From Parcubacteria group bacterium (GTDB lineage: Bacteria; Patescibacteriota; Minisyncoccia; Phycocordibacterales; Zambryskibacteraceae), in contig JAQBRN010000020.1 in NCBI GenBank assembly GCA_028286465.1, positions 1-50,503 on the forward strand: a DNA stretch of 50,503 nt, written 5' to 3'. A program made the translations under genes and the position numbers. Below the pieces are notes generated by a model. The model worked only from the letters and a program-made list of their open reading frames with translations. It ran no database searches and was not told the origin of the DNA. Below are positions 4,981-20,386 of this stretch, in pieces; position 1 is the first letter of the stretch; each line of letters starts with the position of its first letter.

Positions 4981-5009
4981 TTCAGACGGCGTACTAAGTA
5001 CGCTATAGT
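4981..5009 (+). promoter_or_regulatory. Putative nrtR promoter (TTCAGA-N17-TATAGT) with a 15-bp perfect palindrome in the spacer
   Basis: The -10-like TATAGT at 5004-5009 ends 6 nt before the ATG at 5016, which implies a leaderless mRNA. The palindrome GCGTACT-A-AGTACGC lies at 4989-5003. Confidence 0.35.
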
Positions 5010-5015
5010 AGAACC

Positions 5016-5696
5016 ATGCCAAAGACATCGACACAGAAGTTCTACAAACCCTCTATTACGGCCGATGTGGTCGTTTTCACCATCGAAGATAGCTTGCTGA
5101 AGGTTCTGACGGTGAAGCGCGCGGACGAGCCATTTAAAGGCACTCGGGCTTTGCCTGGAGGCTTCATCCTGCCCGGAAGCGACTCGATGGGCACGGCGAG
5201 AAGAATCCTTAAGGAAAAGGCGGGGCTCGAAGGCATCTATATGGAACAGCTCTACACCTTCGACGACCCGAAGCGCGATCCCCGAGGATCGGTCGTCTCC
5301 GTCGCCCACTTCGCTCTCGTACACCGGGATGCTATCTCCCTCGAAACCTCCTCGCATACCCAGGACCCGACCTTCACGCCGCTTAAGCACACCGGCACGC
5401 TCGCCTTCGACCACAAAAAGATCATCGAGTACGCCTATGAGCGCTTGCGAGGCAGGCTCGAATACACGAATATCGCCCAGTCGCTCCTGCCAAAGGAATT
5501 CACCTTCAGCGAACTTCAGAATGTCTATGAAACGATCTTCTCGAAGAAGCTCGACAAAAGGAACTTCAGAAAAAAGATCGAACGCCTCGGCCTCATCAAG
5601 GCCACGAAGAAGAAGATCAAGCGCGGACGCCAGCGCCCGGCCCTCCTCTACACCTTCGCTTCCGGCAAAGCCGAAAGCTTCAAGAATCCATTTTAA
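5016..5696 (+). CDS. nrtR: NrtR-like transcriptional regulator (Nudix domain + C-terminal winged-helix)
   Basis: 226 aa. The Nudix-fold N-terminus has a degenerate Nudix box (GGFILPGSDSMGTARRILKEKAGL, catalytic Glu positions lost). The C-terminal part (FDHKKIIEYAYERLRGRLEYTNIAQSLLPKEFTFSELQNVYETIF...KRNFRKKI) matches the NrtR wHTH pattern. NAD-salvage genes and palindromic boxes lie nearby. Confidence 0.75.
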   Translation: MPKTSTQKFYKPSITADVVVFTIEDSLLKVLTVKRADEPFKGTRALPGGFILPGSDSMGTARRILKEKAGLEGIYMEQLYTFDDPKRDPRGSVVSVAHFALVHRDAISLETSSHTQDPTFTPLKHTGTLAFDHKKIIEYAYERLRGRLEYTNIAQSLLPKEFTFSELQNVYETIFSKKLDKRNFRKKIERLGLIKATKKKIKRGRQRPALLYTFASGKAESFKNPF

Positions 5697-5745: not shown

Positions 5746-7485
5746 CTATTTCATCCGAACCGACCAGAGAGACCCGTTCTCGATGTAGACGACCTGGTCA
5801 CCGAAGTTTCCAAGAATCATCTTCGTCGAAACGTGCTTGTCCTCGAGCTTCGTCGCTACTCCACTCGACGGAACGGAGATGCAAAGCTCCCCATCATCCT
5901 CGATACTGGCATTCACGCCCTTCGGCAGAATAGCAATATCGAGCTCCGTGTCATCGACCGCAGTAACGTCGGATCGATATGTCCCATAATCCTTCGAGAA
6001 GACAAGATCGATCCTTTGATACGAACCGGACTTATCCGCCGCGATGACGGATGCGAAGCGATTTCCTGCCTTGCCTCGAAGTACCCTCTTGCCATCGAGT
6101 TCCCGCACACGGACATGCATGAGCCCGGAGTCTCCGAAGGGCAGAAGAAGGAACTTGGCTCCCATGGCATCCTGGATGCCAAGACCGTCGAAGCATTGCG
6201 TGGCATTCGGCAGCGTACTCCATGTTTGTCCGGCTGAAGCGAGCACTTTGGTGCCGAAGCTATGAAGCTTTATTTCGGTCAGCCCACGTTCACCGAGAAC
6301 GAAGAGCCGGTTTTCATACCCGAGGATGCTCTTCGCCTCGATCGAGAATGCCAGCCATTCGGCCTTCTGGCTTCCCATTTCGGCATACGTCAGCTTGGCC
6401 TGGCCATTCTCCTTTTCAAGAATAAGCCAGCCGTCGGGCGTTCGTGCGACTTCGCATTCCCGCCCGACCGCTTTCGCGATCTCCTGCTTCGTATGCACAT
6501 CGACAAGCAGCCCCGACGCAAGAAGCGCCGCACCGGATCTGAATGTTCGTACCACAGCATCGTTCGTCCGCTCGTAGAGCTTCTCGAAGACGAGGAGGCC
6601 GGACTTCCCGATCGTCTGGATGCGGAGCACGCGCGCCGCACTCGATGCCGTCGCAATGTCGAAGTTCGAAGGCGGCATATTCCGTTCGCCTTTTTGAAAC
6701 ACCGCTTCATACCAGGCAAGAAGTCCTTTTGGGATAAGCGAGAAGTCGCGCACTGCCTGGTTCAAGCGCACGTTCGGCGCGAAGACCGATGCATTGGCTT
6801 TCATCCGCTCGAGGAACTCCGTCTTCTTGTACGACGGGTGGGTTCCTTTGTACGGATGGACGCCCGTGAAGACCTGGAACGTAACGACGCCCCAGGAAAA
6901 CCAGTCGCTCTTCTCGTCGAAGCCTTTTGCATTCCAATCCCTGATCGACGGCATAATAGCCGTTGCCGGCCATCTGCCTATGGCCCACGAGTCGACATCG
7001 ACCACGCGGGGTTCCGGGTTCGAACCTCGAAACTTCATGAACCAGTTGAGCTCGTTTGCGTCGACGAGTATCGCTCCGTGCCCGTGGGCGAAGGAGACGG
7101 TATCGCGCATGCGAATGACAAGTTCCTTGGCGAACTTCTCGTTGAAGCCTTCCCTGTTCCAGAAATCATTGGTGAAAACTCTCGAGAGAGGAGCGCATTC
7201 CGCTTCGTCGATATAGGGCATGTAGTAGCCGACGGGGTCGCACTTTTCCGAAACGATGAGTCCTTTCGGCGCGATGACGTACGGCGACTTCAGCTTGCCG
7301 AGCTCCCGGATCTTTGCCGGAATGACCTTCTTCGGATCGGTGAAGATCTTCGCTACAGTGTCCTTTCCGACGCGGTAGATCGACCCTTCGCCGCCCGTTG
7401 CGACGTGATCCGACGGCCTGAGCGTGACGAGCCCCCGGCCGACGAGTTCAACCTTCAAGCTGCCCCGCGATGTCGGTGCCGACAT
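5746..7485 (-). CDS. Ser/Thr protein kinase-like protein with a ~290-aa uncharacterised C-terminal domain (third gene of the vWA/PP2C/kinase triad)
   Basis: G-loop GGEGSIYRV, Lys in VAKIF, catalytic LVDANELN and VVDVDSW. The track start at 7515 is a TTG. The ATG at 7485 is preceded by AAGAGGA and is preferred. It overlaps the end of the PP2C gene by 38 nt. Confidence 0.75.
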   Translation of the reverse strand: MSAPTSRGSLKVELVGRGLVTLRPSDHVATGGEGSIYRVGKDTVAKIFTDPKKVIPAKIRELGKLKSPYVIAPKGLIVSEKCDPVGYYMPYIDEAECAPLSRVFTNDFWNREGFNEKFAKELVIRMRDTVSFAHGHGAILVDANELNWFMKFRGSNPEPRVVDVDSWAIGRWPATAIMPSIRDWNAKGFDEKSDWFSWGVVTFQVFTGVHPYKGTHPSYKKTEFLERMKANASVFAPNVRLNQAVRDFSLIPKGLLAWYEAVFQKGERNMPPSNFDIATASSAARVLRIQTIGKSGLLVFEKLYERTNDAVVRTFRSGAALLASGLLVDVHTKQEIAKAVGRECEVARTPDGWLILEKENGQAKLTYAEMGSQKAEWLAFSIEAKSILGYENRLFVLGERGLTEIKLHSFGTKVLASAGQTWSTLPNATQCFDGLGIQDAMGAKFLLLPFGDSGLMHVRVRELDGKRVLRGKAGNRFASVIAADKSGSYQRIDLVFSKDYGTYRSDVTAVDDTELDIAILPKGVNASIEDDGELCISVPSSGVATKLEDKHVSTKMILGNFGDQVVYIENGSLWSVRMK

Positions 7486-8362
7486 GATCTTCGTCCTCTT
7501 CGTGAAGGTGTTCAATATGGATGACGGCCATCGACACGTCGTCGACGGGCTTCGAGCTTTTGCGTTCGTAATTCTTTAGTGCGCGGATCATCCGCCTCTT
7601 GGCGAATTCTCCGGCGAAATTCTTGAACGACATGAGTTCGACGACGGCATCGATCCATTCGACGCCCTCGATCTGAGCTGCACCGTCCGAGAAAACCGCC
7701 ACGGACTCGAGCGTTTCGATTTCTTCGTTCGTGATCTCTTCGAAAATTCCAAGGAGTCCGTCGCGAAGATTGAATTCGACGATCCTACTCTCACCTACCT
7801 TCCCGAGTGTGTCGATGAAGACATCCGTTCGGGACAAGCGCATGGCAGACAAATCTCCGCCATGAGTCTTCACGAATTCTTCGAGATCGAGACCGGTGTA
7901 GGCCGGGTAGAAGGGCGTATTGTCCGCCCATTCGTAGTGCGAGGCAACCAAGCTCCCGTCCGTAAATTTCTTCGCGACGACGCCGTCGCCTTCCACATGC
8001 ACGAACCCTCCCGTTTCGGAAAGATAGGCGTACACGCAAGTCGCAAGCATGTCGGAGGACGAGAGACCGAGAAGCATCCGCGCATCGTGAAGAAGTTCTT
8101 TCTTCCGATCTTGTATGGCAACGGACATATCGAGAAGGCCTTCTCGAGGATTCTCCGCAACAGACTTCATCGCTCCGAGGAGCGAAAGGGCCTGAATGCG
8201 CGAGCCCACATCGGTGTGCCGGCCCGTCGAGCAGCCGTCCGAAACGACTGCGACGGCCGATCTCTCGTTCCCTCCCGAAAGCGCGTAATCCTGGCAGGGC
8301 AAGCCGTGCGCGTAATGCGCGCTTCCGATCTGGAAGTAATGATCCGCGTGAAGATTCCTCAT
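7448..8362 (-). CDS. PP2C-family protein phosphatase (PP2C_2 type)
   Basis: The conserved start MRNLHADHYFQIGSAHYAHGLPCQDYA...AVVSDGCSTGRHTDVGSR has its ATG at 8362, preceded by GGAGGAG. The longer track ORF (to 8539) would overlap the vWA gene by 125 nt. Confidence 0.8.
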   Translation of the reverse strand: MRNLHADHYFQIGSAHYAHGLPCQDYALSGGNERSAVAVVSDGCSTGRHTDVGSRIQALSLLGAMKSVAENPREGLLDMSVAIQDRKKELLHDARMLLGLSSSDMLATCVYAYLSETGGFVHVEGDGVVAKKFTDGSLVASHYEWADNTPFYPAYTGLDLEEFVKTHGGDLSAMRLSRTDVFIDTLGKVGESRIVEFNLRDGLLGIFEEITNEEIETLESVAVFSDGAAQIEGVEWIDAVVELMSFKNFAGEFAKRRMIRALKNYERKSSKPVDDVSMAVIHIEHLHEEDEDHVGTDIAGQLEG

Positions 8363-8414
8363 ACTCCTCCAAAGAAAAAGGAATGGCGACCTGCCATTCC
8401 TGTGTGAGAACTTC

Positions 8415-9167
8415 TTAGATGGTAGCCGCGATGTTCTGGCTCGGCCCGCCCGTCCCGAGAGACTGCGACTGGCTCGAGACGGATTGGGAAACGAACCCCG
8501 CGAGCTTGGCGAGCTTCGACTTGGTGGCATCACCGGCATCGATGTACTTCATGCCGGCTTCGGTCTCGAGCTTCGCGAGTTCGGTAGCGCAGAACTTGGT
8601 GTTCACGCCGACGGCGATAGCGATGAGCGATTCGATCTCTTCGCCCTTCGTCCCGCGTTCGATCTCCTTCTTGATCATCGTTGTCGTTGCGGACGACACG
8701 TTGTCGCCGCCATCGGTGATGACGATGACGATACCGTTCGCCAGGAAATCCTGGTCCATGAGCTGCTTGCCGTAAGCAAGCGTGGCGCCGACTGCCGAGA
8801 AACAGGCATCGTAGAGAGGCGTGAGTCCGTCAGGAACGATGTCCGGATACGAACTCGGATCGATATCTCCGAGCGGCTTGAAGCCGTGGATCTCGTCGAT
8901 CCCGTTCGGCAGGGCCGAATTGAAGAAGATAACCCTGACGAGAAGGTTCATCGACCGCGGCGACTTCTTACAGGAGTCAACGGCGGTAATGAGACAATCT
9001 CTCAGTTCCTTATCGAACCCCATGACGGACCCGGTCGTATCGACCGCGATGGTCACGAGCGTGTACTCCGTCGCGCCGAGCTCTCCGATCTTCGTGCCCG
9101 AGAACTTGAAGGCTTGCAGGCCTCGCACGGTTCCCGTTTGCATCGTCGCGTCCTTGAGGCGCGGCAT
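8415..9167 (-). CDS. von Willebrand factor A (vWA) domain protein, TerY-like
   Basis: 250 aa. It has a MIDAS-like VDTTGSV, then GLTPLYDA and IVIVITDGGDN. The SD AAGGAGA lies 5 nt upstream of the ATG. Confidence 0.8.
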   Translation of the reverse strand: MPRLKDATMQTGTVRGLQAFKFSGTKIGELGATEYTLVTIAVDTTGSVMGFDKELRDCLITAVDSCKKSPRSMNLLVRVIFFNSALPNGIDEIHGFKPLGDIDPSSYPDIVPDGLTPLYDACFSAVGATLAYGKQLMDQDFLANGIVIVITDGGDNVSSATTTMIKKEIERGTKGEEIESLIAIAVGVNTKFCATELAKLETEAGMKYIDAGDATKSKLAKLAGFVSQSVSSQSQSLGTGGPSQNIAATI

Positions 9168-9200
9168 GGTGTCTCCTTGTAAGAGGTGAGACTTCCTCGC

Positions 9201-10073
9201 TTACGTGAGGAAGTCCGTGGAAGTGATGAGCGTCATGCCGAGCTTCTGCATGTCCTTCTGCCACGCGTCCGCAATGGCCGGGAAATCCGGTCCGTTGGGA
9301 ACGGCGCCGACAGGGCTCATGCAATCGGTGATGAGCGCGAACTTATTCAGGTGCTCCGATCCGATGTTCTTGGCGATCTGATTCATCGTCGTCAAGAGAC
9401 AGTGGCTCGATGCTTCGCCGAGTGCGCCGATGATGTCGGCTTCGGCAAGGCTTTCGAGCACCGAGGTGTTGAGCTGCGTGCTCGGATCGTCCGGATCGGG
9501 AACTTCGGCCATCAGTGCGCCGAAATGTTCGGTGTGCGGATTCGATCCCTTGGTCACGTAGTCGACCGAGGCGAATTCCTTCTCCGACCAGCGCTGAAGC
9601 GCATCGTTGAGATCGTCCTGGACATTGTGTCCCCAGGTACCGATCTCGCAGTGATTCGTCCAGATCATGAGCGGATACAAACCGCCGGCTTCGAGCGCCT
9701 TCGCGTAGGCCAGTGCACGCGCACGCAGGCCAGGATGGCGCGGCGTCCAGATGCCGGCTTCGATATCGCTCACGCTGATGATGGTGAACGGAGCAGGCTG
9801 CTTGCCCTTCGCGTTCATCCAGTAGCCAGGGCGTTCGATGCCGATCCGGCGGTGGCTGTCGAGGGTGACCTTGATGTCATCGAGCTTGTGCCCGATGCGA
9901 TCGATCATTTTCGCGGCCCGCTTCATGTCGGAAACAGCGCCCTTGACGGGCAGCGCCGCAGTGCGGACGCGGCTCGTGCCGAGCGTTTCGACGAGCGGAG
10001 TACCATCGTCGTTCCCCATGAAATCGTTCTGGGGGTCGATGATAAGGAGGTGAACCTTGAGTCCTTTCGACAT
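9201..10073 (-). CDS. pncA: Nicotinamidase / cysteine hydrolase (long form), paralogue 1
   Basis: Isochorismatase-fold catalytic elements: IIDPQNDF (Asp), VTKG (Lys), EASSHC (Cys). The nicotinamidase-type motif IWTNHCEIGTWG (WPxHC-like) is present. The SD is AAGAGGA. Confidence 0.7.
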   Translation of the reverse strand: MSKGLKVHLLIIDPQNDFMGNDDGTPLVETLGTSRVRTAALPVKGAVSDMKRAAKMIDRIGHKLDDIKVTLDSHRRIGIERPGYWMNAKGKQPAPFTIISVSDIEAGIWTPRHPGLRARALAYAKALEAGGLYPLMIWTNHCEIGTWGHNVQDDLNDALQRWSEKEFASVDYVTKGSNPHTEHFGALMAEVPDPDDPSTQLNTSVLESLAEADIIGALGEASSHCLLTTMNQIAKNIGSEHLNKFALITDCMSPVGAVPNGPDFPAIADAWQKDMQKLGMTLITSTDFLT

Positions 10074-10141
10074 AGAGTCCTCTTAAGGGTAATGGGAACT
10101 GCGGGAAACTTCGGGTTCTTTCTATTCTGTTCTCAATGTAC

Positions 10142-10162
10142 TTAGTGTTCTAGTGACACTAT
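10142..10162. promoter_or_regulatory. Candidate NrtR operator, box 1 (TTAGTGT-tctagtg-ACACTAt)
   Basis: 21-bp palindrome with one mismatch. It overlaps the -10 (TATAGT, minus strand, 10158-10163) of the pncA-1 promoter. Confidence 0.65.
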
Positions 10163-10187
10163 ATACCCATGACCTATTTAGTGTCAA
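10158..10187 (-). promoter_or_regulatory. pncA-1 promoter, TTGACA-N18-TATAGT
   Basis: The minus-strand TTGACA (plus-strand coordinates 10182-10187) lies inside box 2. TATAGT (10158-10163) overlaps box 1. Confidence 0.5.
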
Positions 10188-10198
10188 ATCAACACTAA
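10178..10198. promoter_or_regulatory. Candidate NrtR operator, box 2 (TTAGTGT-caaatca-ACACTAA)
   Basis: Perfect 7+7 palindrome containing the -35 of the pncA-1 promoter. It lies 36 bp centre-to-centre from box 1. Confidence 0.65.
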
Positions 10199-11210: not shown

Positions 11211-12503
11211 TCAAACATAGACTCGGCTCGACGAGAGGCCTTCGACTCCGAAGATCTTCTTGTAGCGCTCGATCTCCTCTTTCGGGCCGGTGACCTTGTC
11301 GAGGTTATCGGAAAGTTTTATACAAGGAAAATCATTTGCCCTGACGACTTTGCAGACCATCGAGAACGGACGCAGAAGCAGATTCGAACTCGTTCCGCGG
11401 AAGTCGTTCGTGAACAAGGATCCCCAGCCATCTGAGAGATTGATCTCGTCTCCGAGCTCCCGATCGATGCGCTTCATCGACTCGACATCGAGCCCGTCCG
11501 ACGGGATCATGAGCTTCGATTTCGGATCGATCTCCCACTTTCTGAGCCAGTTTATGTACATACGACCGCGAGAAACCGGATCGTTCGAATCCTGGCGCAT
11601 GCCCCTCCACGCTGCTACACATTCGGGTGCATTGTCGAGGAACTGCTTGGTGCCGTACGTGTCCGGAAGGAAGATCCTGAGCGACTGGTTATATGTCTTC
11701 TCCCACAACCGGAGCGGCTCATACTGCGCGTCGACCTTGTCCTTATCCGGCGCGAGCGCCACGAGTACCATGGGCATCTCGTGAGCATTCGTGCCGATCG
11801 GCGAGAGATCGTGACGGAACGCCATCCATGTGTTCGACGTTCCGATGAACTGCTCGCCCATCATGGACTTGGCAAGCCCGATGGCCCATTCCTGCCAGAG
11901 GAAGCTGTGACGCCTGCGCTGTCCGAAATCGGAGAACGTGATCCGCGGGAACTTTTGCAATTCCTCGAGCTTCCGCGACAGCTTGTCCATCGCTCGCGCG
12001 TAGACAAGCTCGAGCTCGTGCTTCGACATCGTCTTCATGACGGCGCGATAGTAGAGCTCCGAGATGACGGCGAGGGCGATCGTTTCCCACATCGAGACTT
12101 CCGCCCACTTTCCCGTGAAGGACAGTTCGATCTCCTTGCCCTTGCGCACGAGGCGATACGGCGGGAGCTTCAACGTCCTGAGAAAATCGAGATACCCCTC
12201 CTTGAACATGTAGTCCTGATGGAGGTTCATCCCGCGCAAGTAGTAGATATCCGTCCGTGAGAAGGTTAAGTCTCTCACGTAGTCGAGACTTTCTCTCAGC
12301 TGGTCTTCAGGAATGATCTCTCCGACCGGAATGTCCTTGTCTCGAATGATGAGCTTGAAGGTGACTTCCACATCGGGATAGTATTGCCAGATGACCTGGC
12401 CCATCGTGAACTTGTAGAAATCGATGTCCATGAGCGACCTGACGGGCGCACTGAACTCGGCCGCATTCATCCGGGCGACATCGGCGAAGTGAGTATTGCT
12501 CAC
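11211..12503 (-). CDS. pncB: Nicotinate phosphoribosyltransferase
   Basis: 430 aa. SLMDIDFYKFTMGQVIWQYYPDVEVTF matches the PncB N-terminal signature. It uses a GTG start preceded by AGGAGGA. Confidence 0.9.
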   Translation of the reverse strand: MSNTHFADVARMNAAEFSAPVRSLMDIDFYKFTMGQVIWQYYPDVEVTFKLIIRDKDIPVGEIIPEDQLRESLDYVRDLTFSRTDIYYLRGMNLHQDYMFKEGYLDFLRTLKLPPYRLVRKGKEIELSFTGKWAEVSMWETIALAVISELYYRAVMKTMSKHELELVYARAMDKLSRKLEELQKFPRITFSDFGQRRRHSFLWQEWAIGLAKSMMGEQFIGTSNTWMAFRHDLSPIGTNAHEMPMVLVALAPDKDKVDAQYEPLRLWEKTYNQSLRIFLPDTYGTKQFLDNAPECVAAWRGMRQDSNDPVSRGRMYINWLRKWEIDPKSKLMIPSDGLDVESMKRIDRELGDEINLSDGWGSLFTNDFRGTSSNLLLRPFSMVCKVVRANDFPCIKLSDNLDKVTGPKEEIERYKKIFGVEGLSSSRVYV

Positions 12504-12628: not shown

Positions 12629-12649
12629 TTAGTGTAGTATAGACACTAA
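12629..12649. promoter_or_regulatory. Candidate NrtR operator, box 3 (TTAGTGT-agtatag-ACACTAA)
   Basis: Perfect palindrome starting 3 nt after the nadE -10. It covers the expected transcription start and ends 4 nt before the nadE ATG. Confidence 0.65.
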
Positions 12650-12653
12650 ATAA

Positions 12654-14582
12654 ATGCAAGACTTCGGCTTCATCCGCGCTTCGGCCATTACTCCCGATCT
12701 TCGTATCGGAGATATTTCATATAATGCAAAAGAGATCATAAAGACCGGGAAGGCGGCAAGCGCGGACGGAGCGTCCTTCATCGTCTTCCCCGAACTCTCC
12801 ATCACGGGGTATTCGATCGGCGATCTTTTTCATCAGGAACTCGTTTGGCAGAAGACGCTCAGTGCACTCGAGGACATACGGAAAGCCCTCGCTTCCTCCC
12901 CTGCTCTTGTCGTCGTGGGCGCCCCGCTTATCATCGGAGGCTTCCATGCCAATTGCGCCGTCGTTCTCTACAGGGGCCGCATCCTTGCCGTCATACCGAA
13001 GACCTACCTGCCAGGCTACAAGGAATTCTATGAGAAGCGCTGGTTCGCATCGGCGAAGGACATTACTGCGACAGAAATAGAGCTCGGAGGACAAATCGTC
13101 CCCGTCGGCACGGATATTCTCATTAAAGCCGCAGACAACATCATTTTCGGCATCGAGATCTGCGAAGACCTCTGGGGTCCGCTTCCTCCGAGTTCCTTTC
13201 AGGCCGTAGCCGGAGCGACCATCATCGGCAATCTCTCCGCATCGAACGAGCTCGTCGGGAAGTCCGCCTACAGGCGCGACCTTGTGAAGAACCAATCGGC
13301 TCGCTGCATCGCGGGCTACGTATACGCATCATCCGGCGTCCACGAATCCTCGACCGACCTCGTCTTCTCTGGGCACTCGCTCATAGCCGAGAACGGCACG
13401 CTGCTTAAGGAGAGCGAGCTTTTCCAGGATAAGTCGCAGATCATCTCCGCCGACATCGATGTCTCTCACTGCGTCGAAGATCGCATCCGTACGACAAGCT
13501 TCGCGGACTCTGCCAAGGAAATTCTTCATCGCCCGTTCCGAACCATCACTCTCGACGACTTCGTGCAAAAAGAAACGAAGGAACTTCTAAGGCCTCTGGC
13601 GAGAAATCCTTTCCTGCCGACAGACGATGCCAAGAAGCACCAGGTAGCCGAAGAAGTCTTTAACATCCAAGTGGCAGGGCTTGTTCAACGTTTGAGAGCA
13701 ACGAATATTAAAACTATCATCATCGGCCTTTCGGGCGGACTCGATTCGACCCTTGCCCTTCTTGTGGCTTTGAATGCAGCCAAGAAGCTCAACCTTCCAT
13801 ATAAAAACATCCGAGCCTTCACCATGCCGGGCTTCGGCACGACCAAGCGCACCAAGTCGAATGCGCATATCCTCGCAGAAGCTTCGAATATTTCCATAGA
13901 AGAAATAGACATCACCGAGGCAAGCAGGCAGCACTTCAAGGATATCCATCACGACGAGCGTATCGAAGATCCCACTTTCGAGAATGTCCAGGCTCGCTAC
14001 AGAACCATGATCCTTATGGACAAGGCCAATCAGTTGAACGGTCTCGTCTTGGGCACCGGCGACCTTTCGGAGATCGCTCTCGGCTGGGCCACCTTCAATG
14101 GTGACCACATCTCTCATTACAACGTGAATGTCGGCGTGCCGAAGACCCTTATCCGTCATGTGGTCTCGTGGGTTGCAGATACTTCAGACAATGCGACGCT
14201 TTCGAAAACTCTTAAGAGCATTCTCGACACCCCGATCTCTCCGGAGCTGAAGCGCGCAAAAGCTGGCAAGATCACCCAAAAAACCGAAGACCTTATCGGC
14301 CCGTATGAACTCCATGACTTCTTCCTCTATCACTTTATCCGCTGGGGTTCGAGGCCGCAGAAGATCCTCTTTCTCGCCGAAATTGCATATAAAGGCACGT
14401 ATTCGAAAGCGGAGATCAAAAAGTGGCTGACGCTCTTTATAAAAAGATTCTTCGGCAATCAATGGAAGCGCTCGGTAGCATCCGACGGTCCGAAGATCGG
14501 TTCCGTAGCCCTTTCCCCCCGCGGCGACTGGCGCATGCCTTCGGACGCAAGCGTCTCTCTCTGGCTCAAAGAACTCGACTAA
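12654..14582 (+). CDS. nadE: Glutamine-dependent NAD+ synthetase (CN-hydrolase domain + NAD synthase domain)
   Basis: 642 aa. The N-terminal nitrilase-type domain has FPELSITGY and EICEDLW. The C-terminal ATP-PPase domain has the motif GLSGGLDST. Confidence 0.9.
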   Translation: MQDFGFIRASAITPDLRIGDISYNAKEIIKTGKAASADGASFIVFPELSITGYSIGDLFHQELVWQKTLSALEDIRKALASSPALVVVGAPLIIGGFHANCAVVLYRGRILAVIPKTYLPGYKEFYEKRWFASAKDITATEIELGGQIVPVGTDILIKAADNIIFGIEICEDLWGPLPPSSFQAVAGATIIGNLSASNELVGKSAYRRDLVKNQSARCIAGYVYASSGVHESSTDLVFSGHSLIAENGTLLKESELFQDKSQIISADIDVSHCVEDRIRTTSFADSAKEILHRPFRTITLDDFVQKETKELLRPLARNPFLPTDDAKKHQVAEEVFNIQVAGLVQRLRATNIKTIIIGLSGGLDSTLALLVALNAAKKLNLPYKNIRAFTMPGFGTTKRTKSNAHILAEASNISIEEIDITEASRQHFKDIHHDERIEDPTFENVQARYRTMILMDKANQLNGLVLGTGDLSEIALGWATFNGDHISHYNVNVGVPKTLIRHVVSWVADTSDNATLSKTLKSILDTPISPELKRAKAGKITQKTEDLIGPYELHDFFLYHFIRWGSRPQKILFLAEIAYKGTYSKAEIKKWLTLFIKRFFGNQWKRSVASDGPKIGSVALSPRGDWRMPSDASVSLWLKELD

Positions 14583-14656: not shown

Positions 14657-15187
14657 ATGCAGGAAACAGACAAGAAGAGACCCGGTATCGTTACCGTCGG
14701 CCTCTTCGGCACCTGTGGAGGCAGTAAGTGGCGCCATTCCTTCAAGGAGCGCTACAGCATGGACGGAATTCACTTCTTTGACCCACAGGTCGAGAACTGG
14801 GATCCGTCGATGGCCGCGATCGAAGCAGATCATCTGGCAGAGGACGAGATCATTCTCTTCCCTGTCACAAGCGAGACCTATGGCATCGGATCATTGGCCG
14901 AAACCGGCTTCTCGGTCCTACAGGCCATTCGGCTCGATGATCGGCGCGACTTCGTCATCATGATCGACATGCACCTTGACGAAGCGCTGCACGAAAACTC
15001 TCTCGCCGCAAAGGAGTCGCTGCGGGCACGAGCGTTGGTGCGCAAGCACCTTGAAAAGCTTCGTCTCTCGAACCTCTTCCTTGTCGACAACCTCGACGAG
15101 ATGCTCGCCGTGAGTCTGGACCTCTGCAAGGCTGCGAAGTTGAAGCAGGGGCTGCTCCAGTTCAACCCTCATCGCAGAGGCGTCTGA
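14657..15187 (+). CDS. Nucleoside 2-deoxyribosyltransferase-like protein (NDT-like, paralogue A)
   Basis: 176 aa. VTVGLFGTCGGSKWR ... DEIILFPVTSETYGIGSLAETGF matches the Rossmann-like NDT-like family pattern (family call from memory). Confidence 0.55.
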   Translation: MQETDKKRPGIVTVGLFGTCGGSKWRHSFKERYSMDGIHFFDPQVENWDPSMAAIEADHLAEDEIILFPVTSETYGIGSLAETGFSVLQAIRLDDRRDFVIMIDMHLDEALHENSLAAKESLRARALVRKHLEKLRLSNLFLVDNLDEMLAVSLDLCKAAKLKQGLLQFNPHRRGV

Positions 15188-15201
15188 GATTTCTTCAGAC
15201 A

Positions 15202-15234
15202 ATGCCGGACATCACAAGATGTCCGGCATTTTTC
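15202..15234 (+). terminator. Terminator of NDT-like gene A
   Basis: 11-bp stem ATGCCGGACAT (15202-15212) / ATGTCCGGCAT (15219-15229) followed by TTTT. Confidence 0.8.
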
Positions 15235-15240
15235 ATATCG

Positions 15241-15269
15241 TTGACATTAGATAATTCAAATAGTATAAG
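15241..15269 (+). promoter_or_regulatory. Promoter TTGACA-N17-TATAAG
   Basis: TTGACA at 15241-15246 and TATAAG at 15264-15269, immediately after the terminator. Confidence 0.55.
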
Positions 15270-15309
15270 TCAGGATAGATTGTTCACTTATTCATCCGCG
15301 GAGTGGTTT

Positions 15310-15783
15310 ATGTCCAGAGAAGTCGACCGCAAGTCAGAAGAAATCATGAAGCTTTTGGAGAAGGCGCCAATCTTCTCTCGGTTTGGTTTCGTACACATCC
15401 GCCCCGCACTTGAGGGCGAGCGTGTTATTACCAAACTAGCGAATGGTGCAGAAGAAACCGAAAACATTGCACAGAAAAATGAGTGGGTAGTAAGAAACCC
15501 CTCAGGTGAGGAGTGGATCATCGATACAGACACCTTCCGTTTCTATGAGCCCACCGAGGTTCCCGAAAAGTTCATTTCGAAAGGTTTCTGCCGAGCGGTC
15601 AAAAACCCTTTTGGCGAACCGATCGAGATCATGGCTTCTTGGGGATCGCGTCAGATCGGCGACGAGAACTGCATGATCGTTGATGCATGCAACGAAGATG
15701 CATCTTGGACTCACGGAGAACCCAAGATCATCGATGGAGATGCTTTCCAAGCCACGTTCACGCCGCTAACTACGAATAAGTAA
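15310..15783 (+). CDS. Hypothetical protein (157 aa)
   Basis: The track ORF starts at 15202 inside the upstream terminator. The first ATG after the promoter is at 15310 (MSREVDRKSEEIMKLLEK...). I recognise no family. Confidence 0.55.
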   Translation: MSREVDRKSEEIMKLLEKAPIFSRFGFVHIRPALEGERVITKLANGAEETENIAQKNEWVVRNPSGEEWIIDTDTFRFYEPTEVPEKFISKGFCRAVKNPFGEPIEIMASWGSRQIGDENCMIVDACNEDASWTHGEPKIIDGDAFQATFTPLTTNK

Positions 15784-16780: not shown

Positions 16781-16806
16781 AAAAACCCCGCAGCATAGCT
16801 GCGGGG
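16781..16806 (-). terminator. Terminator of the Mqo-family gene
   Basis: Stem CCCCGCAGC (16786-16794) / GCTGCGGGG (16798-16806) with loop ATA and a minus-strand T-run. Confidence 0.8.
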
Positions 16807-16814
16807 CGTTGGAA

Positions 16815-18152
16815 CTATCGGGCGTGAACAACGCCTCCCAGTTCGGCTTCGAATCTCTCGGAGTCGAACCGGTAGTGATTGCCGAGAAAACCGGCAACCC
16901 GCTCGGCATCCCGCTTGGCATTCGCGAGACACACCGAGGCGCCCGGTGACGGCGTGGTGTTGAAGATGCAATTGTCGCCGACGATGGTCTTGTCGCCCAT
17001 TTCGAGATTGTCGGTCTTTTTCTCGAGATTGACGATCTGAGGACGAATACCGCCAACGCCCTTTCTGAGCTTGAGGTCGCGATACCGAATGGTCGGCACG
17101 ATCACTCGAGCTTGCCGCAGAAACATCAGCGGACCGAGCACGGGCACATCGTAGAGCGCGTTCCGAACAACATACCCGACAAGATGATTCTTGAAGAGAA
17201 TGCTGAGAAGAACAATGAGGCCTCTGATCGAGACGATCGGGAGCTTCATGAAGTCCCAGAACGTCTTGTACTGATGCCGCTCCATGAGAGGCAAAGGCTT
17301 CGTCGTCGGGCCGAACCGCGTGTCGTCCTGATTGAGGACATCCGGATCGCCGTGAATGGCCGCGAACGGCATCCCCTCGATCTGAACGCGGTAGACCTTC
17401 CCGCGCAGGAACTTCCCTGCGGAGAAAAAACTGCCGGCGACCGGCAAGATGCCGTATTCCAGGCCGTAGCCGAGCTGCTGCGCGAAGAGAAGGCTGTATG
17501 CGCCCGAGGCGAATACCACCACCTTCGCGCGGAACTCGCCGCGATCCGTTTCGAGCACGAATTCCTTTCCGACCCTGCGGACCTTTTTCAGGTCCGTATC
17601 GAAGAAGAGGTTGGTGCTGTCATCCTCGTCGAGCGAACGGCTGACGAATGTTTCCGCGAGCCGCTGGTAGTTCACCGCGTAACCTTCGTTCGTCACGAGG
17701 GCACAGACGGGCTCGTTCGGATCACGGCCGAGCATGACCATCGGTTCGAGCTCTCGAAGATCCGATGCACTGGCGAGCCAGAGATCCGGATAGTCGTTCT
17801 TGAACTCGACGAACCGGTGATGAAGCAGTGTGACCTCGTCCTCGCCGACACCAAGCACCATGCGTGTGGTCTTCTTGAAGAGATCCGCGACTTCCGCCTG
17901 CTCGACGAAATTCCGAAGATACGTCGCCGCCACCTTCACTTCGCGAGCATGCTCGAGACCGTAATTCGTCTCGGTACTGCCGTCATGCGAGGTCTGAGCG
18001 TTGTTCATCGGATTCGAATTCACCTGTGCGACATGTCCACACTTCTCGATGAGCGCCATACGGCCCACGTTCGAGAAGCGACTGAGCGCGTAGAGAAGCG
18101 CCGTACCGGTCACTCCGCCGCCCACGATGATGACATCGTAGTCTCTGTGCAT
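16815..18152 (-). CDS. FAD-dependent oxidoreductase of the malate:quinone oxidoreductase (Mqo) family
   Basis: 445 aa. It has the dinucleotide fold DVIIVGGGVTGTA. NNAQTSHDGSTETNY parallels the Mqo motif NNAGTGHSALCELNY, and the C-terminal SPGASVCL parallels ASPGAST. Confidence 0.6.
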   Translation of the reverse strand: MHRDYDVIIVGGGVTGTALLYALSRFSNVGRMALIEKCGHVAQVNSNPMNNAQTSHDGSTETNYGLEHAREVKVAATYLRNFVEQAEVADLFKKTTRMVLGVGEDEVTLLHHRFVEFKNDYPDLWLASASDLRELEPMVMLGRDPNEPVCALVTNEGYAVNYQRLAETFVSRSLDEDDSTNLFFDTDLKKVRRVGKEFVLETDRGEFRAKVVVFASGAYSLLFAQQLGYGLEYGILPVAGSFFSAGKFLRGKVYRVQIEGMPFAAIHGDPDVLNQDDTRFGPTTKPLPLMERHQYKTFWDFMKLPIVSIRGLIVLLSILFKNHLVGYVVRNALYDVPVLGPLMFLRQARVIVPTIRYRDLKLRKGVGGIRPQIVNLEKKTDNLEMGDKTIVGDNCIFNTTPSPGASVCLANAKRDAERVAGFLGNHYRFDSERFEAELGGVVHAR

Positions 18153-18194: not shown

Positions 18195-18223
18195 ATTCTA
18201 TCATTAAAACTACTTAAAGTCAA
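18195..18223 (-). promoter_or_regulatory. Promoter TTGACT-N17-TAGAAT of the Mqo-family gene
   Basis: Minus-strand TTGACT at 18218-18223 (overlapping the stop of the Nudix gene) and TAGAAT at 18195-18200. The SD is AAGGA. Confidence 0.55.
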
Positions 18224-18819
18224 GTAAGCTCATGAGGAGCGGGATCCTTCAAAATAGTCCTCAGCTCAGCCTCCCTTTCCTGTATAAGACAATCTTCGGC
18301 GAAGCGCTGGCGATACTTGAAGCCGAACTTCCTGACCGTGGCAATATAGTCGTCGATGGACATTCTGACTGGCTCGCTCGTCTCTCCTGCATCGAGGTGC
18401 TGATCTTTGGTCTCTCCGGTGAATCCTGCAGCGACGACCGTATACGAAATCCATTCCGCAGAGGGATTCGGCTGTTCCATATGAACGAGATAGAAGTTCG
18501 TGAAGACCATCCCCGTCTCCTCTTCGAGTTCCCTCTTCGCTCCGGCGAGTATGTCCTCTCCGTCTTCGAGCATGCCAGCCACGATATTGAGTGCGGGCGC
18601 ATCCCAGTGCGGCTGCTGTTCTCTTACCGCCACGATCTCGTCTCCGATGATCGGCAGGACGATGACGTTGTCCGTCCTTCGCACCGTTTCGAAGGTGTGC
18701 ATCTCTCCGTTGAATTGTTTCTGCTTCCATTGATGGACGTCGAAACGGACGCCGTCGAAGACTTTCTCCGCGGTGTCGGAATGGAAGGTAACACCCGGAG
18801 GCAATGGTCGTTTGTTCAT
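18220..18819 (-). CDS. Nudix hydrolase with an intact catalytic box (ADP-ribose pyrophosphatase-like)
   Basis: 199 aa. The canonical Nudix box GMLEDGEDILAGAKRELEEETGM is present. The start lies 3 nt after the ARH stop. Confidence 0.8.
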   Translation of the reverse strand: MNKRPLPPGVTFHSDTAEKVFDGVRFDVHQWKQKQFNGEMHTFETVRRTDNVIVLPIIGDEIVAVREQQPHWDAPALNIVAGMLEDGEDILAGAKRELEEETGMVFTNFYLVHMEQPNPSAEWISYTVVAAGFTGETKDQHLDAGETSEPVRMSIDDYIATVRKFGFKYRQRFAEDCLIQEREAELRTILKDPAPHELT

Positions 18820-18822
18820 GGT

Positions 18823-19821
18823 TTAATAGATGTCTATAAGTTTCTCTGCGAGTTCGAGAGGCTCTTCGAAGGCCTTGCTGAAACTCTTCCATTCTACAGG
18901 AATGGATTCGAGTCCGCAGTTGGCTCCGATAAGGGCTCCCGCGATGGAAGCGTTGGTATCGGTATCGCCTCCGGCATTCACGGCTTCGAGAATGCCCGTT
19001 TTGAAATCCTTCGGGTGTCTCAGAAACGTGCCTATGGCGAAAGCAGCCGCATCGAGCGCGCTGAAGCCCGACCCAACAGCCCGAGAAAGGCTCTCTGCAT
19101 TATCTAAATGATCCGTTATCTTTTCGAGTCTTTCCGAGACCGATTCATATTCAGACGGTTCTTCTGTTTCGAGCTCTTTGATCGTCTGTATGATGATTTC
19201 AAGATATGCCGCTCCGGAACTCGCATCCATGCCGCCTTCGCTTTCAAGTATTCTTTGAAGAAACAGGGCAACTGCATATGCCGCAATACTTGCCCGAATA
19301 TCAGGGTGCGTCATGGAGCCGAGCGCCTTCACATCCTTCCAGAGTTCTTCACCGCTGCCTCGCCTTAAGGAGTTATTGACGCCAAGCGGCGAGACCTTCA
19401 TGACAATGCCGCTTCCGCAGCCCTTGCCCGGTACTCCCGGAGGAAGCGGATCTTGACCGGGTATTCTCTTACCATCTCTGATCGCTTCTATGGCGATCTC
19501 CGTCGTTTTGCCCCAGCCGAATTTGCTCTTGCTGTATGAGCGGACATGCTCCTCAGCGCAGTCGACGATGTCGAATGCTCCCTTCGTGCGCACAAGCGAA
19601 CGCAAGACGACTGCCGTGAGCTGCCAATCGTCCGTCGTGTCGCCGGCCTTCAAGTCCCCGAGCCAGTCGGTACGATTGATCGGATCGATAAAGCCCGTAA
19701 GCCCCTTCCCAGCCGTATCCTTCAAAATCTCTTCATGACTCATCGTCTCGACCGGCATGCCCAAAGCATCACCGATAGCGATTCCGAGGAAACAACCTTG
19801 AATTCTATTGCTTGTTGTCAT
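18823..19821 (-). CDS. ADP-ribosylglycohydrolase family protein
   Basis: GCFLGIAIGDALGMPVE and GGDTDTNASIAGALIGA are hallmark ARH motifs. The preferred start is MTTSNRIQ (ATG at 19821), which overlaps the upstream stop as ATGA. Confidence 0.85.
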   Translation of the reverse strand: MTTSNRIQGCFLGIAIGDALGMPVETMSHEEILKDTAGKGLTGFIDPINRTDWLGDLKAGDTTDDWQLTAVVLRSLVRTKGAFDIVDCAEEHVRSYSKSKFGWGKTTEIAIEAIRDGKRIPGQDPLPPGVPGKGCGSGIVMKVSPLGVNNSLRRGSGEELWKDVKALGSMTHPDIRASIAAYAVALFLQRILESEGGMDASSGAAYLEIIIQTIKELETEEPSEYESVSERLEKITDHLDNAESLSRAVGSGFSALDAAAFAIGTFLRHPKDFKTGILEAVNAGGDTDTNASIAGALIGANCGLESIPVEWKSFSKAFEEPLELAEKLIDIY

Positions 19822-20306
19822 GGTGTATGAATAAGCTTCTCTTTGATACATCGCTCTACTGCCTTGATACATTCCGGAAGCAACTCAAATATCGGAATCC
19901 CATACTGCTTCGCAATGATATCGACATTGCCCTTGCGCCAGAAACCTTCCGGACAGCAAACAAACACCTTGCCGCTCGCGGCGAAGAGCCCGAGTTCGAG
20001 GAGGCTTATCGGCGACTTCGTCTTCGGATCGAAATAGAACAAAATGACATCCGCTTCTTTAAGTCCCCGCTGCTCCCATTCGACTTGTTCCTTAAATACA
20101 GGATTATGAATGCTTTGTTCGATACCGCTATCCCAGACCGGTCGGCGCGGATTCAGAAGCACGATGTCGTACGCTGAGAACTCCTCGGCAATACCATCTT
20201 GCCAGCGCTCAGCAGTATCCATCTCGATGCTTCCGGCAAGAAACACCTTAGGCTTGCTTGCTTCTCGTTCCGTATCAAATGCGTGTGGTGCGTGAATCAT
20301 CTGCAT
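19818..20306 (-). CDS. Nucleoside 2-deoxyribosyltransferase-like protein (NDT-like, paralogue B)
   Basis: 162 aa. KVFLAGSIEMDTAERW ... ADVILFYFDPKTKSPISLLELGLF follows the same family pattern as 14657-15187. The ATG directly abuts the palindromic box. Confidence 0.55.
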   Translation of the reverse strand: MQMIHAPHAFDTEREASKPKVFLAGSIEMDTAERWQDGIAEEFSAYDIVLLNPRRPVWDSGIEQSIHNPVFKEQVEWEQRGLKEADVILFYFDPKTKSPISLLELGLFAASGKVFVCCPEGFWRKGNVDIIAKQYGIPIFELLPECIKAVERCIKEKLIHTP

Positions 20307-20327
20307 ATAGTGTTATATATACACTAA
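20307..20327. promoter_or_regulatory. Candidate NrtR operator, box 4 (aTAGTGT-tatatat-ACACTAA)
   Basis: 21-bp palindrome with one mismatch. Its AT spacer provides the only -10-like element, implying a leaderless NDT-like/ARH/Nudix transcript. Confidence 0.6.
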
Positions 20328-20336
20328 CACAGCACG

Positions 20337-20360
20337 AAAAACCCCGCAACTTATGCGGGG
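20337..20360 (-). terminator. Terminator of the SPFH gene
   Basis: Stem CCCCGCA (20342-20348) / TGCGGGG (20354-20360) with a minus-strand T-run. Confidence 0.75.
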
Positions 20361-20386
20361 TTCTAACTTCACTCCTAGCTTTGGGA

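Follow-up and report, generated by a model that had tools for sequence, protein, structure and literature searches.

Three adjacent genes in the 50,503-nucleotide window (the whole stretch of DNA that was analysed) are read here, with a probability of about 0.6, as a translationally coupled operon under NrtR repression. Its transcript is probably leaderless, and its enzymes would act on what NAD consumption leaves behind in a Patescibacteria-like (CPR) bacterium. The genes encode a nucleoside deoxyribosyltransferase (NDT)-like protein of family PF15891, an ADP-ribosylglycohydrolase (ARH) and a catalytic Nudix hydrolase, and each of these parts recurs with NrtR or NAD genes elsewhere. The operon and its immediate surroundings comprise the following features.

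Positions 19818 to 20306, minus strand: NDT-like B, a PF15891 (Nuc_deoxyri_tr2) protein of 162 amino acids (PF15891, E = 1.9e-35).
Positions 18823 to 19821, minus strand: ARH, an ADP-ribosylglycohydrolase of the ARH/ARG family, 332 amino acids (PF03747, E = 2e-57).
Positions 18220 to 18819, minus strand: Nudix hydrolase with an intact catalytic box, 199 amino acids (PF00293, E = 1.4e-13).
Positions 20307 to 20327: box 4, an NrtR-type 21-bp palindrome, TTAGTGT-ATATATA-ACACTAT when read on the minus strand from 20327 to 20307 (sequence and pattern scan).
Positions about 20337 to 20362, minus strand: terminator-like hairpin and T-run ending the upstream SPFH gene (sequence).
Positions 16815 to 18152, minus strand: Mqo/L-2-hydroxyglutarate-oxidase-like FAD oxidoreductase, downstream of the Nudix gene (Pfam, NCBIfam).

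All three open reading frames lie on the minus strand where the first-pass annotation had placed them, and the junctions that it described are present in the sequence. The stop codon TGA of the NDT-like gene shares bases with the ARH start codon in an ATGA overlap (..ACACCATGA..), and the ARH and Nudix genes are separated by three nucleotides (TAA-acc-ATG). The NDT-like start at 20306 is in register with the N-termini of aligned homologues, and ARH homologues of 327-344 amino acids cover 98% of the 332-residue form. A promoter and terminator scan detected neither element within the trio; co-transcription is thus the default for genes joined by an overlap and a 3-nt gap. The SPFH hairpin leaves the trio at most about 30 nt of upstream DNA of its own. 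No sigma-70-type -35/-10 pair was found there in the promoter scan, and transcription could also arrive by read-through from the SPFH gene. Since the terminator scan found no terminator after the Nudix gene, the operon may run on into the FAD oxidoreductase gene, which has its own sigma-70-like promoter (18223..18195) and terminator (16807..16785) and could be reached by read-through from the trio too. GC content is unremarkable.

Control by NrtR is suggested by the regulator and the operator copies found elsewhere in the window.

Positions 5016 to 5696, plus strand: NrtR, with a Nudix-like effector domain and an NrtR winged helix (Pfam; NrtR_WHD, E = 4.9e-23; NUDIX, E = 4.1e-9).
Positions 10142 to 10162 and 10178 to 10198: boxes 1 and 2, upstream of an isochorismatase-like gene (9201 to 10073, minus strand).
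Positions 12629 to 12649: box 3, between the divergently oriented genes pncB (11211 to 12503, minus strand) and nadE (12654 to 14582, plus strand).

The window contains four matches to TAGTGT-N7-ACACTA, all of them exact, against an expectation of 0.41 even with two mismatches allowed; none of 100 shuffles reached four, and no further site was found in the window at three or fewer mismatches of 14 positions. The exact copy in box 3 shows that the trio has its operator in common with pncB and nadE, and the isochorismatase-like gene behind boxes 1 and 2 is followed by genes for a 250-residue protein, a PP2C and a kinase-like protein. The designation of box 4 as an NrtR-type operator also agrees with published NrtR sites, which are 21-bp palindromes built on a GT-N7-AC core and lie over promoter elements or the start; the published anti-repressor is ADP-ribose (PMC2330246). 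Box 4 is placed likewise: it directly precedes the ATG of the NDT-like gene, and its AT-rich spacer contains a -10-like TATATA 7 nt before that ATG. With no Shine-Dalgarno sequence seen before this ATG, the leaderless start proposed earlier is plausible and the transcript is probably leaderless; several other genes of the window carry a -10-like hexamer 5-8 nt before their ATG. The NrtR regulator is encoded 13 kb from the trio. It matches the NCBIfam model of ADP-ribose-responsive repressors with E = 2e-47, below the cut-off, and is 44% identical to a Bacteroidota NrtR. The protein is probably non-catalytic, since the signature of its Nudix domain is degenerate (..RILKEK..). With NrtR encoded in the window, a box at the operon start and copies at NAD genes, the trio is a predicted member of the NrtR regulon, in which NrtR would bind box 4 and respond to ADP-ribose.

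The two downstream proteins retain motifs of their enzyme families. The best solved relatives of the ARH are MJ1187 and ARH3, and its metal-binding motifs are kept: GDALG..PVE (D18, E25), TDD (T63, D64, D65) and GGDTDT (D286, D288, T289). By alignment with ARH3 and MJ1187, these acidic and threonine residues presumably hold two metal ions. The closest ARH homologues share 55-58% identity with it, and those that are named come from Patescibacteria. No ADP-ribosyltransferase or sirtuin able to create ARH substrates was found among the window open reading frames scanned. The Nudix box is indeed intact (G82-x5-E88-x7-R96-E97-L98-x-E100-E101-x-G103-M104 for the pattern GX5EX7REUXEEXGU), with R96-E97-L98-E99-E100-E101-T102-G103-M104 in the translation. 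The suggested ADP-ribose-pyrophosphatase-like layout is in line with the best solved relatives, which are ADP-ribose pyrophosphatases, NudE and NudF (PDB matches, E = 4e-8 to 4e-5); scores against the NCBIfam models for NudE (38.5 against 169) and ADP-ribose diphosphatase (25.2 against 248) are far below the equivalog cut-offs. Pro119, 15 residues past the box, is taken to be placed as in E. coli NudF.

Conservation does not extend to the trio as a whole. Synteny elsewhere, by which the first-pass annotation had proposed to judge its reading, was absent: the exact trio occurs in no other sequence examined. Among the Nudix orthologues, the closest (68-75% identity) belong to NrtR/NAD islands that contain neither NDT nor ARH, and their neighbours in related contigs include NrtR, NadE, PncB, NadD, NadR-like and PnuC genes. 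No box stands directly upstream of the Nudix orthologues in relatives, so NrtR control of this gene may be peculiar to the lineage of the window. The closest ARH orthologues stand alone, and those in other CPR genomes lack both a box and neighbouring NAD genes. The double box and gene order of the isochorismatase-like region recur in two relatives (L094 and L095); in related contigs the box TTAGTGT-N7-ACACTAA is found before the isochorismatase-like gene and at pncB/nadE, where it is perfect in relatives too. The trio is best read as a lineage-specific assembly of recurrent parts.

The NDT-like assignment passed both profile and fold tests. NDT-like B scores 121.8 bits against PF15891 (cut-off 30) and matches PDB entry 4mcj with E = 1.8e-23. 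Its AF2 model has a pLDDT of 92.7, and Foldseek places 4mcj first (TM about 0.8), followed by YtoQ, MilB (TM about 0.6), PTD and DNPH1; TIR-domain entries (the TRIF TIR filament and EcThsB) are among the weak matches. MilB and DNPH1 were not reached by its sequence profile. The NDT fold is common to MilB, BcmB, DNPH1/RCL, PTD and 4mcj, whereas PF15891 has a signature of its own (AGSIE, WQ, NPRR, VxWE, TKSP, CPxGFWRKGN). Invariant residues of the family, numbered as in NDT-like B, include E28, W35, Q36, R54, Q74, W77, E78, T96, P99, E104, G106, C118, P119, W123, K125, G126 and N127; at the nearly invariant position W62 the window protein has isoleucine. E104 (..SLLELG..) lies at the start of the helix at residues 99-108, after the strand at 87-91 in the model. 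By motif position after strand 3, it may occupy the same place as the catalytic glutamate (the ribosyl-enzyme nucleophile) of DNPH1, NDT and MilB. The family evolves slowly, with 50-60% identity across phyla and 28 invariant columns. Over 8000 clusters at 90% identity belong to it, with a single orphan crystal structure, 4mcj (BDI_0649, an uncharacterised protein). NDT-like B is predicted to be an N-glycosidase or N-ribosyltransferase, and our guess is that NMN/NR or AMP are the most likely candidate substrates.

Across phyla and in phages, PF15891 proteins are recurrent partners of NrtR, NadV and Prs. An orthologue lies within 6 kb of NrtR on the same strand in 27 of 80 species genomes, where it is internal to an NrtR-led operon; these neighbouring NrtRs match that of the window with E = 1e-37 to 1e-53, and paired NrtR-like boxes head the clusters. 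Partners at PF15891 loci are Prs-like (24) and NadV (24) proteins, ARH (13), NADAR (13), and KptA, Macro and DUF4291 (11 each). An NDT-to-ARH overlap of 4 nt is also found in loci L041 and L021, and since their ARH is 26% identical to that of the window, the NDT-ARH pairing arose more than once. NrtR-like boxes occur upstream of NDT orthologues in CPR loci (L001-L004, L022 and L033) and in Tenacibaculum (L051). In each of three further CPR lineages the orthologue comes after PnuC, and the order before it is terminator, conserved box TTAGTGTACTTGCAACAC[A/G]AT, TATAAT, 8 nt and ATG; the trio of the window shows this succession of terminator, box, -10 and ATG too. Many genomes have PF15891 orthologues with unrelated neighbours. 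Of 80 viral loci, 41 have a NadV-like gene and 32 a Prs-like gene, and Prs-NDT-NadV modules have gaps of 2-14 nt. Some viral orthologues adjoin NadM-Nudix, cyclic-phosphate-processing cREC domains adjoin PF15891 in 15 of the 80 loci, and in gp225 of jumbo phage Tunturi_5 the domain is fused to an ART-PolyVal ADP-ribosyltransferase. In the modules of Bacteroidota and phages, a PF15891 enzyme that cleaved NMN would work against NadV.

The statement that such a trio lies outside the classical NrtR regulon holds only in part. Neighbourhoods of nrtR with draG (ARH) in Streptomyces and with prs and nadV in Cytophaga were described in 2008 (Rodionov et al. 2008, PMC2330246). A description of ARG systems under Nudix-HTH regulators, for which ADP-ribose release was proposed as inducer, followed in 2022 (Iyer et al., PMC9503650). 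The window shares with the 2008 regulons the regulator domains, a 21-bp GT-N7-AC operator over the promoter or start, and pncB, nadE and pncA-type targets (PMC2330246). It differs in combining PF15891, an ARH3/MJ1187-like ARH and a stand-alone catalytic Nudix in one coupled operon, and in its CPR-type host, from a group that the 2008 work did not cover. The paper makes no mention of PF15891 (no occurrence of "deoxyribosyltransferase" in PMC2330246). The NrtR-led Prs-NadV-ARH-Macro-KptA-NADAR superclusters of Bacteroidota (L014-L093) resemble the window in PF15891 (50-60% identity), in NrtR (44%), in a near-identical box family (TTTGTGT/TAAGTGT-N7-ACACTAA) and, in some loci, in the 4-nt NDT-ARH overlap. 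In contrast, the window has no Prs, NadV, Macro, KptA, NADAR, PARG or DUF4291 and carries PncB/NadE salvage instead; its ARH is of a different subfamily (26% identity), and no catalytic Nudix like that of the window was found in the 80 supercluster-survey loci (phmmer, E <= 1e-4).

Phage pathways NARP1 (Adps-Namat) and NARP2 (Nampt-Nmnat) rebuild NAD from ADP-ribose and nicotinamide (bioRxiv 10.1101/2024.02.11.579819). Viral PF15891 orthologues lie inside Prs-like/NadV-like modules that follow the same logic and in which the Prs-like protein may be either Adps or true Prs; a PF15891 component is not mentioned in the preprint (bioRxiv 10.1101/2024.02.11.579819). The window itself is not a NARP1- or NARP2-type module: no Prs/Adps or NadV/Namat gene was found among the open reading frames scanned across it, and only NDT orthologues elsewhere lie in such modules.

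A rival reading, which we consider unlikely, is that the trio defends against ADP-ribosylation, like the ARG-centred modules that Iyer et al. (2022) predicted. The ARH would strip ADP-ribose placed on host macromolecules by transferases of phages or competitors, the Nudix-HTH regulator would sense the freed ADP-ribose, and the NDT-like and Nudix proteins would dispose of the products. ARG systems with Nudix-HTH regulators and no coupled transferase are candidate counter-ADP-ribosylation systems (PMC9503650), and the window similarly has an ARH without a transferase partner under a repressor of this type that is presumed to sense ADP-ribose; PF15891 homologues are also common in phages, one of them within the ART-fused polyvalent protein. 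However, the regulator is 13 kb away and its operator is common to pncB, nadE and other salvage genes. The typical phosphatase, chaperone, REase and ARPP partners are absent next to the trio, whose neighbours are NDT-like, Nudix, FAD oxidoreductase and SPFH genes; the published description (PMC9503650) includes neither an NDT-like nor a catalytic Nudix partner. The trio also departs from the ARG-centred Nudix/WYL layout, where the ARG adjoins its regulator and usually has a phosphatase, a chaperone or effectors coupled to it. A PADLOC search gave no matches, the GC content offers no support, and the slow evolution of PF15891 is unlike that of rapidly evolving conflict genes.

Metabolism of an NAD-derived signal is rather improbable. 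Here the NDT-like protein, as a member of the TIR/DrHyd/SLOG fold class, would cleave NAD to produce or destroy a signal derived from ADP-ribose, for instance a cyclic ADP-ribose isomer, which ARH and Nudix would degrade. The DrHyd/TIR class contains NADases and ADP-ribosyl cyclases (PMC9503650), and the weak TIR matches, the fusion to an NAD-using ART and the adjoining viral cREC domains fit this idea. Against it, the best characterised fold neighbours are the nucleotide N-glycosidases MilB and DNPH1 and not cyclases or TIRs, it would be self-defeating to place an NADase under a regulator that turns NAD resynthesis on, the trio lacks a sensor or effector partner, and phage PF15891 genes lie inside NAD-rebuilding modules. 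Chance juxtaposition of unrelated housekeeping hydrolases for general nucleotide scavenging, with a palindrome that controls the first gene only or nothing, is similarly improbable: lack of conservation as a unit, dense packing of CPR genomes, unrelated neighbours of many PF15891 orthologues and absence of a detected canonical promoter would favour it, but the tight junctions without internal promoter or terminator, four exact palindromes far beyond expectation and the independent recurrence of all three families with NrtR or NAD genes speak against it.

For the trio as an NrtR-repressed recycling operon, a mechanism can be proposed with substrates that we infer for all three enzymes. At low free ADP-ribose, NrtR would occupy the palindrome over the -10, the transcription start and the first codon and block transcription. 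ADP-ribose, the known anti-repressor of the NrtR family, would release NrtR and thereby also de-repress pncB/nadE and the isochorismatase-like operon through the same box. The ARH would free ADP-ribose from ADP-ribosylated conjugates or from O-acyl- or phospho-ADP-ribose, and the Nudix hydrolase would convert ADP-ribose to AMP and ribose-5-phosphate, feeding PRPP-dependent salvage. Removal of the inducer in this step would give negative feedback; the loop proposed by the first-pass annotation, in which the operon both makes and destroys the inducer of NrtR, would follow from these activities. The PF15891 enzyme would cleave, or exchange the base of, a ribonucleotide from NAD turnover, yielding nicotinamide from NMN/NR or a second ribose-5-phosphate from AMP. 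A nucleotide step is suggested because MilB and DNPH1, its nearest characterised fold relatives, are nucleoside-monophosphate N-glycosidases. Tentatively, NAD/ADP-ribose recycling may have in PF15891 a widespread enzyme that has so far escaped recognition. As an N-ribosyl hydrolase or a base-exchange transferase with a pyridine or adenine ribonucleotide (NMN/NR, NaMN or AMP) as substrate, it would give nicotinamide or ribose-5-phosphate for salvage and would have been recruited into CPR and Bacteroidota NrtR regulons and as the third gene of phage Prs-NadV modules.

NrtR regulons are already known, as are ADP-ribose-processing enzymes, and the operon extends this established theme. It also serves as a pointer, in that it places an uncharacterised family under an operator common to pncB and nadE, and the same family often supplies the middle gene in Prs-NadV modules of phages and recurs beside NrtR, NadV and Prs in Bacteroidota. 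The depletion of NAD by bacterial defences and its rebuilding by phages are under active study; a PF15891 enzyme inside NAD modules lends itself to direct testing and might contribute a further step to known pathways. Were PF15891 such a recycling enzyme, the NDT-ARH-Nudix operon would amount to a small unit that senses ADP-ribose, recycles it and resets itself, in a symbiont with a reduced genome. As regards CPR biology, the operon suggests how such a symbiont ties the sensing of NAD consumption to the recovery of nicotinamide, AMP and ribose-5-phosphate.

The three genes that the first-pass annotation had described as an operator-controlled, coupled unit are present exactly as it placed them, as minus-strand open reading frames between 18220 and 20327. 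The stop codon of the NDT-like B gene and the start codon of the ARH gene overlap as ATGA, 3 nt separate the ARH TAA from the Nudix ATG, and the chosen start codons are backed by homologue alignments. Directly before the first ATG at 20306 stands TTAGTGT-ATATATA-ACACTAT (20327..20307), one of four copies of the pattern TAGTGT-N7-ACACTA in the window. All four are exact, against an expectation of 0.41 even at two mismatches; no shuffle reached four copies, and a mismatch scan of the window found no weaker ones.

Features of the trio, the regulator gene and the other boxes
19818-20306, minus strand: NDT-like B, Pfam PF15891 'Nucleoside 2-deoxyribosyltransferase like' (E 1.9e-35, 121.8 bits vs a cut-off of 30)
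18823-19821, minus strand: ARH, ADP_ribosyl_GH (E 2e-57)
18220-18819, minus strand: Nudix hydrolase, NUDIX (E 1.4e-13)
5016-5696: NrtR, a Nudix-like domain with an NrtR winged helix
Between pncB (11211-12503) and nadE (12654-14582): one box
Before the isochorismatase-like gene (9201-10073): two boxes
5746-10198, minus strand: run behind the double box, encoding a 290-aa isochorismatase-like protein, the product of a 250-aa gene, a PP2C phosphatase and a 589-aa kinase-like protein

Each box spans 21 bp and is palindromic around a GT-N7-AC core, the architecture that Rodionov et al. derived for NrtR sites (PMC2330246). Published NrtR sites overlap promoter elements or fall between promoter and start codon, and NrtR-DNA binding in vitro is weakened by ADP-ribose (PMC2330246). 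The Nudix signature of the NrtR protein in the window is degenerate (RILKEK where REUXEE is expected), and the protein is thus likely a sensor, not an enzyme. At the sequence level the regulon is shown to be tied to NAD salvage, and we infer that NrtR binds the boxes with ADP-ribose as its effector. The best-supported reading of the trio is an NrtR-repressed operon that recycles the products of NAD consumption.

Several other features of the regulon were observed. The double box (10142-10162, 10178-10198) heads the four-gene run, and an identical gene order follows an identical double box in two related contigs (L094 and L095); control of a phosphatase/kinase set by NrtR is unexpected. The isochorismatase-like protein has no Pfam match and its PDB sequence search was empty; its label 'PncA-like' comes only from a DPQNDF-type motif near the N-terminus and from a low-scoring NCBIfam match to its paralogue. 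The nrtR gene itself carries no NrtR box. At 4986-5018, its start region has a different perfect palindrome, CGTACT-A-AGTACG, upstream of the gene and TATAGT 6 nt before its ATG, which suggests a leaderless start and possibly control by a different factor. After nadE, on the same plus strand, NDT-like A is followed by a PGDYG-domain protein (14657-15783), and relatives likewise have PGDYG in their NAD island (L095, 5266-5730). NDT-like A scores 25.5 bits against PF15891, which is below the cut-off, and an hhalign comparison with the NDT-like B family gave a probability of 37% with the Glu of SLAETG aligned; its PDB sequence search was empty. An NDT-A-like reading frame (8670-9068) follows NadV in another genome (L035).

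The trio has a compact control region. A hairpin and T-run at about 20337-20362 terminates the upstream SPFH gene, which leaves only about 30 nt ahead of the trio ATG. No Shine-Dalgarno sequence precedes this ATG, and a -10-like TATATA lies within the operator spacer, 7 nt before it. Besides the trio start at 20306, several further window genes, nrtR among them, show a -10-like hexamer 5-8 nt ahead of their ATG (e.g. starts 24483, 30597, 5016). Such starts are without Shine-Dalgarno sequences; other window genes carry clear AGGAG-type sites. A start in related contig L095 reads TGTTAGAAT, 8 nt, ATG, and leaderless mRNAs seem to be common in the source genome and related contigs. In three other CPR lineages the NDT-like B orthologue is preceded by a terminator, the conserved box, TATAAT, 8 nt and the ATG. 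Because this order recurs in three lineages and the hexamer is placed as described, a leaderless trio transcript repressed by occlusion is plausible. A simple scan found no -35/-10 pair upstream of the trio, and its transcription by read-through from the SPFH gene is possible. No terminator was found after the Nudix gene. The next gene encodes an FAD enzyme like Mqo or L-2-hydroxyglutarate oxidase and has its own promoter and terminator: a strong sigma-70-like promoter, TTGACT-17-TAGAAT with an upstream TG (18195-18223, minus strand), starts in the last Nudix codons, and a GC-rich terminator follows the gene (16785-16807, minus strand). A five-gene operon including this oxidoreductase and a 309-aa open reading frame was rejected on the strength of these two elements; read-through from the trio is possible, which makes the oxidoreductase at most a candidate member.

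The three proteins were compared with known structures. NDT-like B matches the orphan structure 4mcj (BDI_0649) with E 1.8e-23, and its AlphaFold model, built with 42 homologues, has a pLDDT of 92.7. Foldseek placed 4mcj first (TM about 0.8), followed at TM about 0.45-0.6 by YtoQ, the CMP N-glycosidase MilB, a purine deoxyribosyltransferase and DNPH1/RCL. Searched against the PDB, a profile of the PF15891 alignment reached 4mcj alone; MilB and DNPH1 are related to the family through fold and not through sequence. The family is strongly conserved and has 28 invariant columns, among them E28, E78, E104, several Trp and the basic R54 and K125, of which the last two could hold a phosphate. Judged by motif position, E104 presumably stands at the place of the NDT/DNPH1 nucleophile. 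The closest solved structures to ARH are MJ1187 and ARH3, and its metal-binding motifs GDALG..E, TDD and GGDTDT are preserved. The Nudix box is complete and the best solved relatives of the protein are ADP-ribose pyrophosphatases; its score is far under the NCBI equivalog thresholds, and none of the three proteins has an equivalog match in NCBIfam. On the recycling reading, with predicted substrates, ARH would free ADP-ribose, the Nudix enzyme would turn it into AMP and ribose-5-phosphate and thereby remove the inducer, and the PF15891 enzyme would cleave or exchange the base of a ribonucleotide from NAD turnover. The same genes could be read as an ARG-centred counter-ADP-ribosylation defence. 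This is unlikely, as the operator is shared with salvage genes, typical partner genes are missing, PADLOC returned no defence-system match and PF15891 evolves slowly. Rfam found only a tRNA distant from the locus, and the composition profile gave no indication of recent transfer.

Of the first-pass annotation, the observation is confirmed and the interpretation is supported in part. The trio is not conserved elsewhere: ARH and Nudix orthologues occur without their trio partners in the loci examined, which makes the trio a lineage-specific assembly. ARH homologues of 55-58% identity, of which the named ones come from Patescibacteria, are solitary and without a box in the three loci examined. 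Nudix orthologues of 68-75% identity, found by a word-indexed protein search, lie in related contigs amid genes for NrtR, NadE, PncB, NadD, a NadR-like kinase, PnuC and PGDYG, and the next gene encodes a 552-aa methyltransferase-like protein; neither NDT nor ARH precedes them and no box is directly upstream. In these relatives the same box, TTAGTGT-N7-ACACTAA, stands both at pncB/nadE and ahead of the isochorismatase-like operon. Scanning metagenomes for the Nudix protein turned up a single weak, partial relative, too little to be informative.

Orthologues of NDT-like B were collected from one genome per species, giving 80 loci at 46-63% identity. In 27 of the 80 an NrtR gene lies upstream on the same strand, no more than 6 kb away (E 1e-37 to 1e-53 vs the window NrtR), and boxes of the window's family, TTTGTGT/TAAGTGT-N7-ACACTAA, stand in pairs at the head of these clusters. 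Prs-like genes and NadV are each found in 24/80 loci, metallophosphoesterase in 15, NADAR in 13, ARH in 13 (24 genes), KptA, DUF4291 and Macro in 11 each, 2OG-Fe oxygenase in 9 and PARG in 5. In two loci (L041 and L021) the NDT gene and the next gene, an ARH, share the 4-nt overlap found in the window; this ARH is only 26% identical to the window ARH, so the pairing arose repeatedly. In loci of Paceibacterota and Saccharibacteria the orthologue comes after PnuC and has a conserved NrtR-like box. The order in three such loci (L001 4955-6474, L022, L033) is a PnuC-type transporter, a 102-aa open reading frame, a terminator, the box TTAGTGTACTTGCAACAC[A/G]AT, TATAAT and the PF15891 gene, and the box is kept while flanking intergenic bases vary between the three lineages. 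Since the CPR boxes lack AT-rich spacers, they escaped a position weight matrix derived largely from Bacteroidota sites, and the analysis relied on mismatch scans. Many carriers of close orthologues are predatory or epibiotic (Herpetosiphon, Saprospiraceae, Micavibrio, Bdellovibrionota, Myxococcota, CPR), and this may be a hint that nucleotides are scavenged from prey.

PF15891 is also carried by phages. An orthologue is encoded on 450 IMG/VR contigs. Of the best 80 loci, 41 have a NadV-like gene, 32 a Prs-like gene and 31 both, without exception on the same strand. Prs-like, NDT-like and NadV-like genes, in that order, form three-gene modules with gaps of 2-14 nt.

IMG/VR viral contigs noted for their PF15891 modules
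L104: 3345-6293
L140: 612-3824
L150: 1-2789
L130
L133

Some viral loci instead hold NadM-Nudix, a macro-like gene, the NDT-like gene and NadV, and homologues also occur in cultured jumbo phages. Tunturiibacter phage Tunturi_5 gp225 (PP885688.1; L177, 4989-8777), is a fusion protein of 1262 aa whose gene adjoins that for the portal. Its N-terminal part is a PF15891 domain (residues 16-115), which is joined to an ART-PolyVal ADP-ribosyltransferase domain (207-380); its record is annotated as 'MutT/NUDIX hydrolase'. The NARP preprint on phage NAD+ reconstitution modules does not mention a PF15891-type component (bioRxiv 10.1101/2024.02.11.579819). Literature searches (PF15891, 4MCJ, YtoQ, NrtR, NAMPT, phage, ADP-ribose) found no PF15891-NAD link; an earlier description by the Aravind group is possible. 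That the NDT-like enzyme makes or breaks a signal is distinctly unlikely given the fold neighbours of NDT-like B and the placement of PF15891 in NAD-rebuilding modules. A chance juxtaposition of three genes has little in its favour, given the tight gene junctions and the independent link of each part to NAD.

Read as a recycling operon, the trio extends the NrtR regulon, a known kind, with ADP-ribose-processing enzymes. It is of value chiefly for drawing attention to PF15891, an uncharacterised family that accompanies genes of NAD salvage and reconstitution across phyla and in phages.
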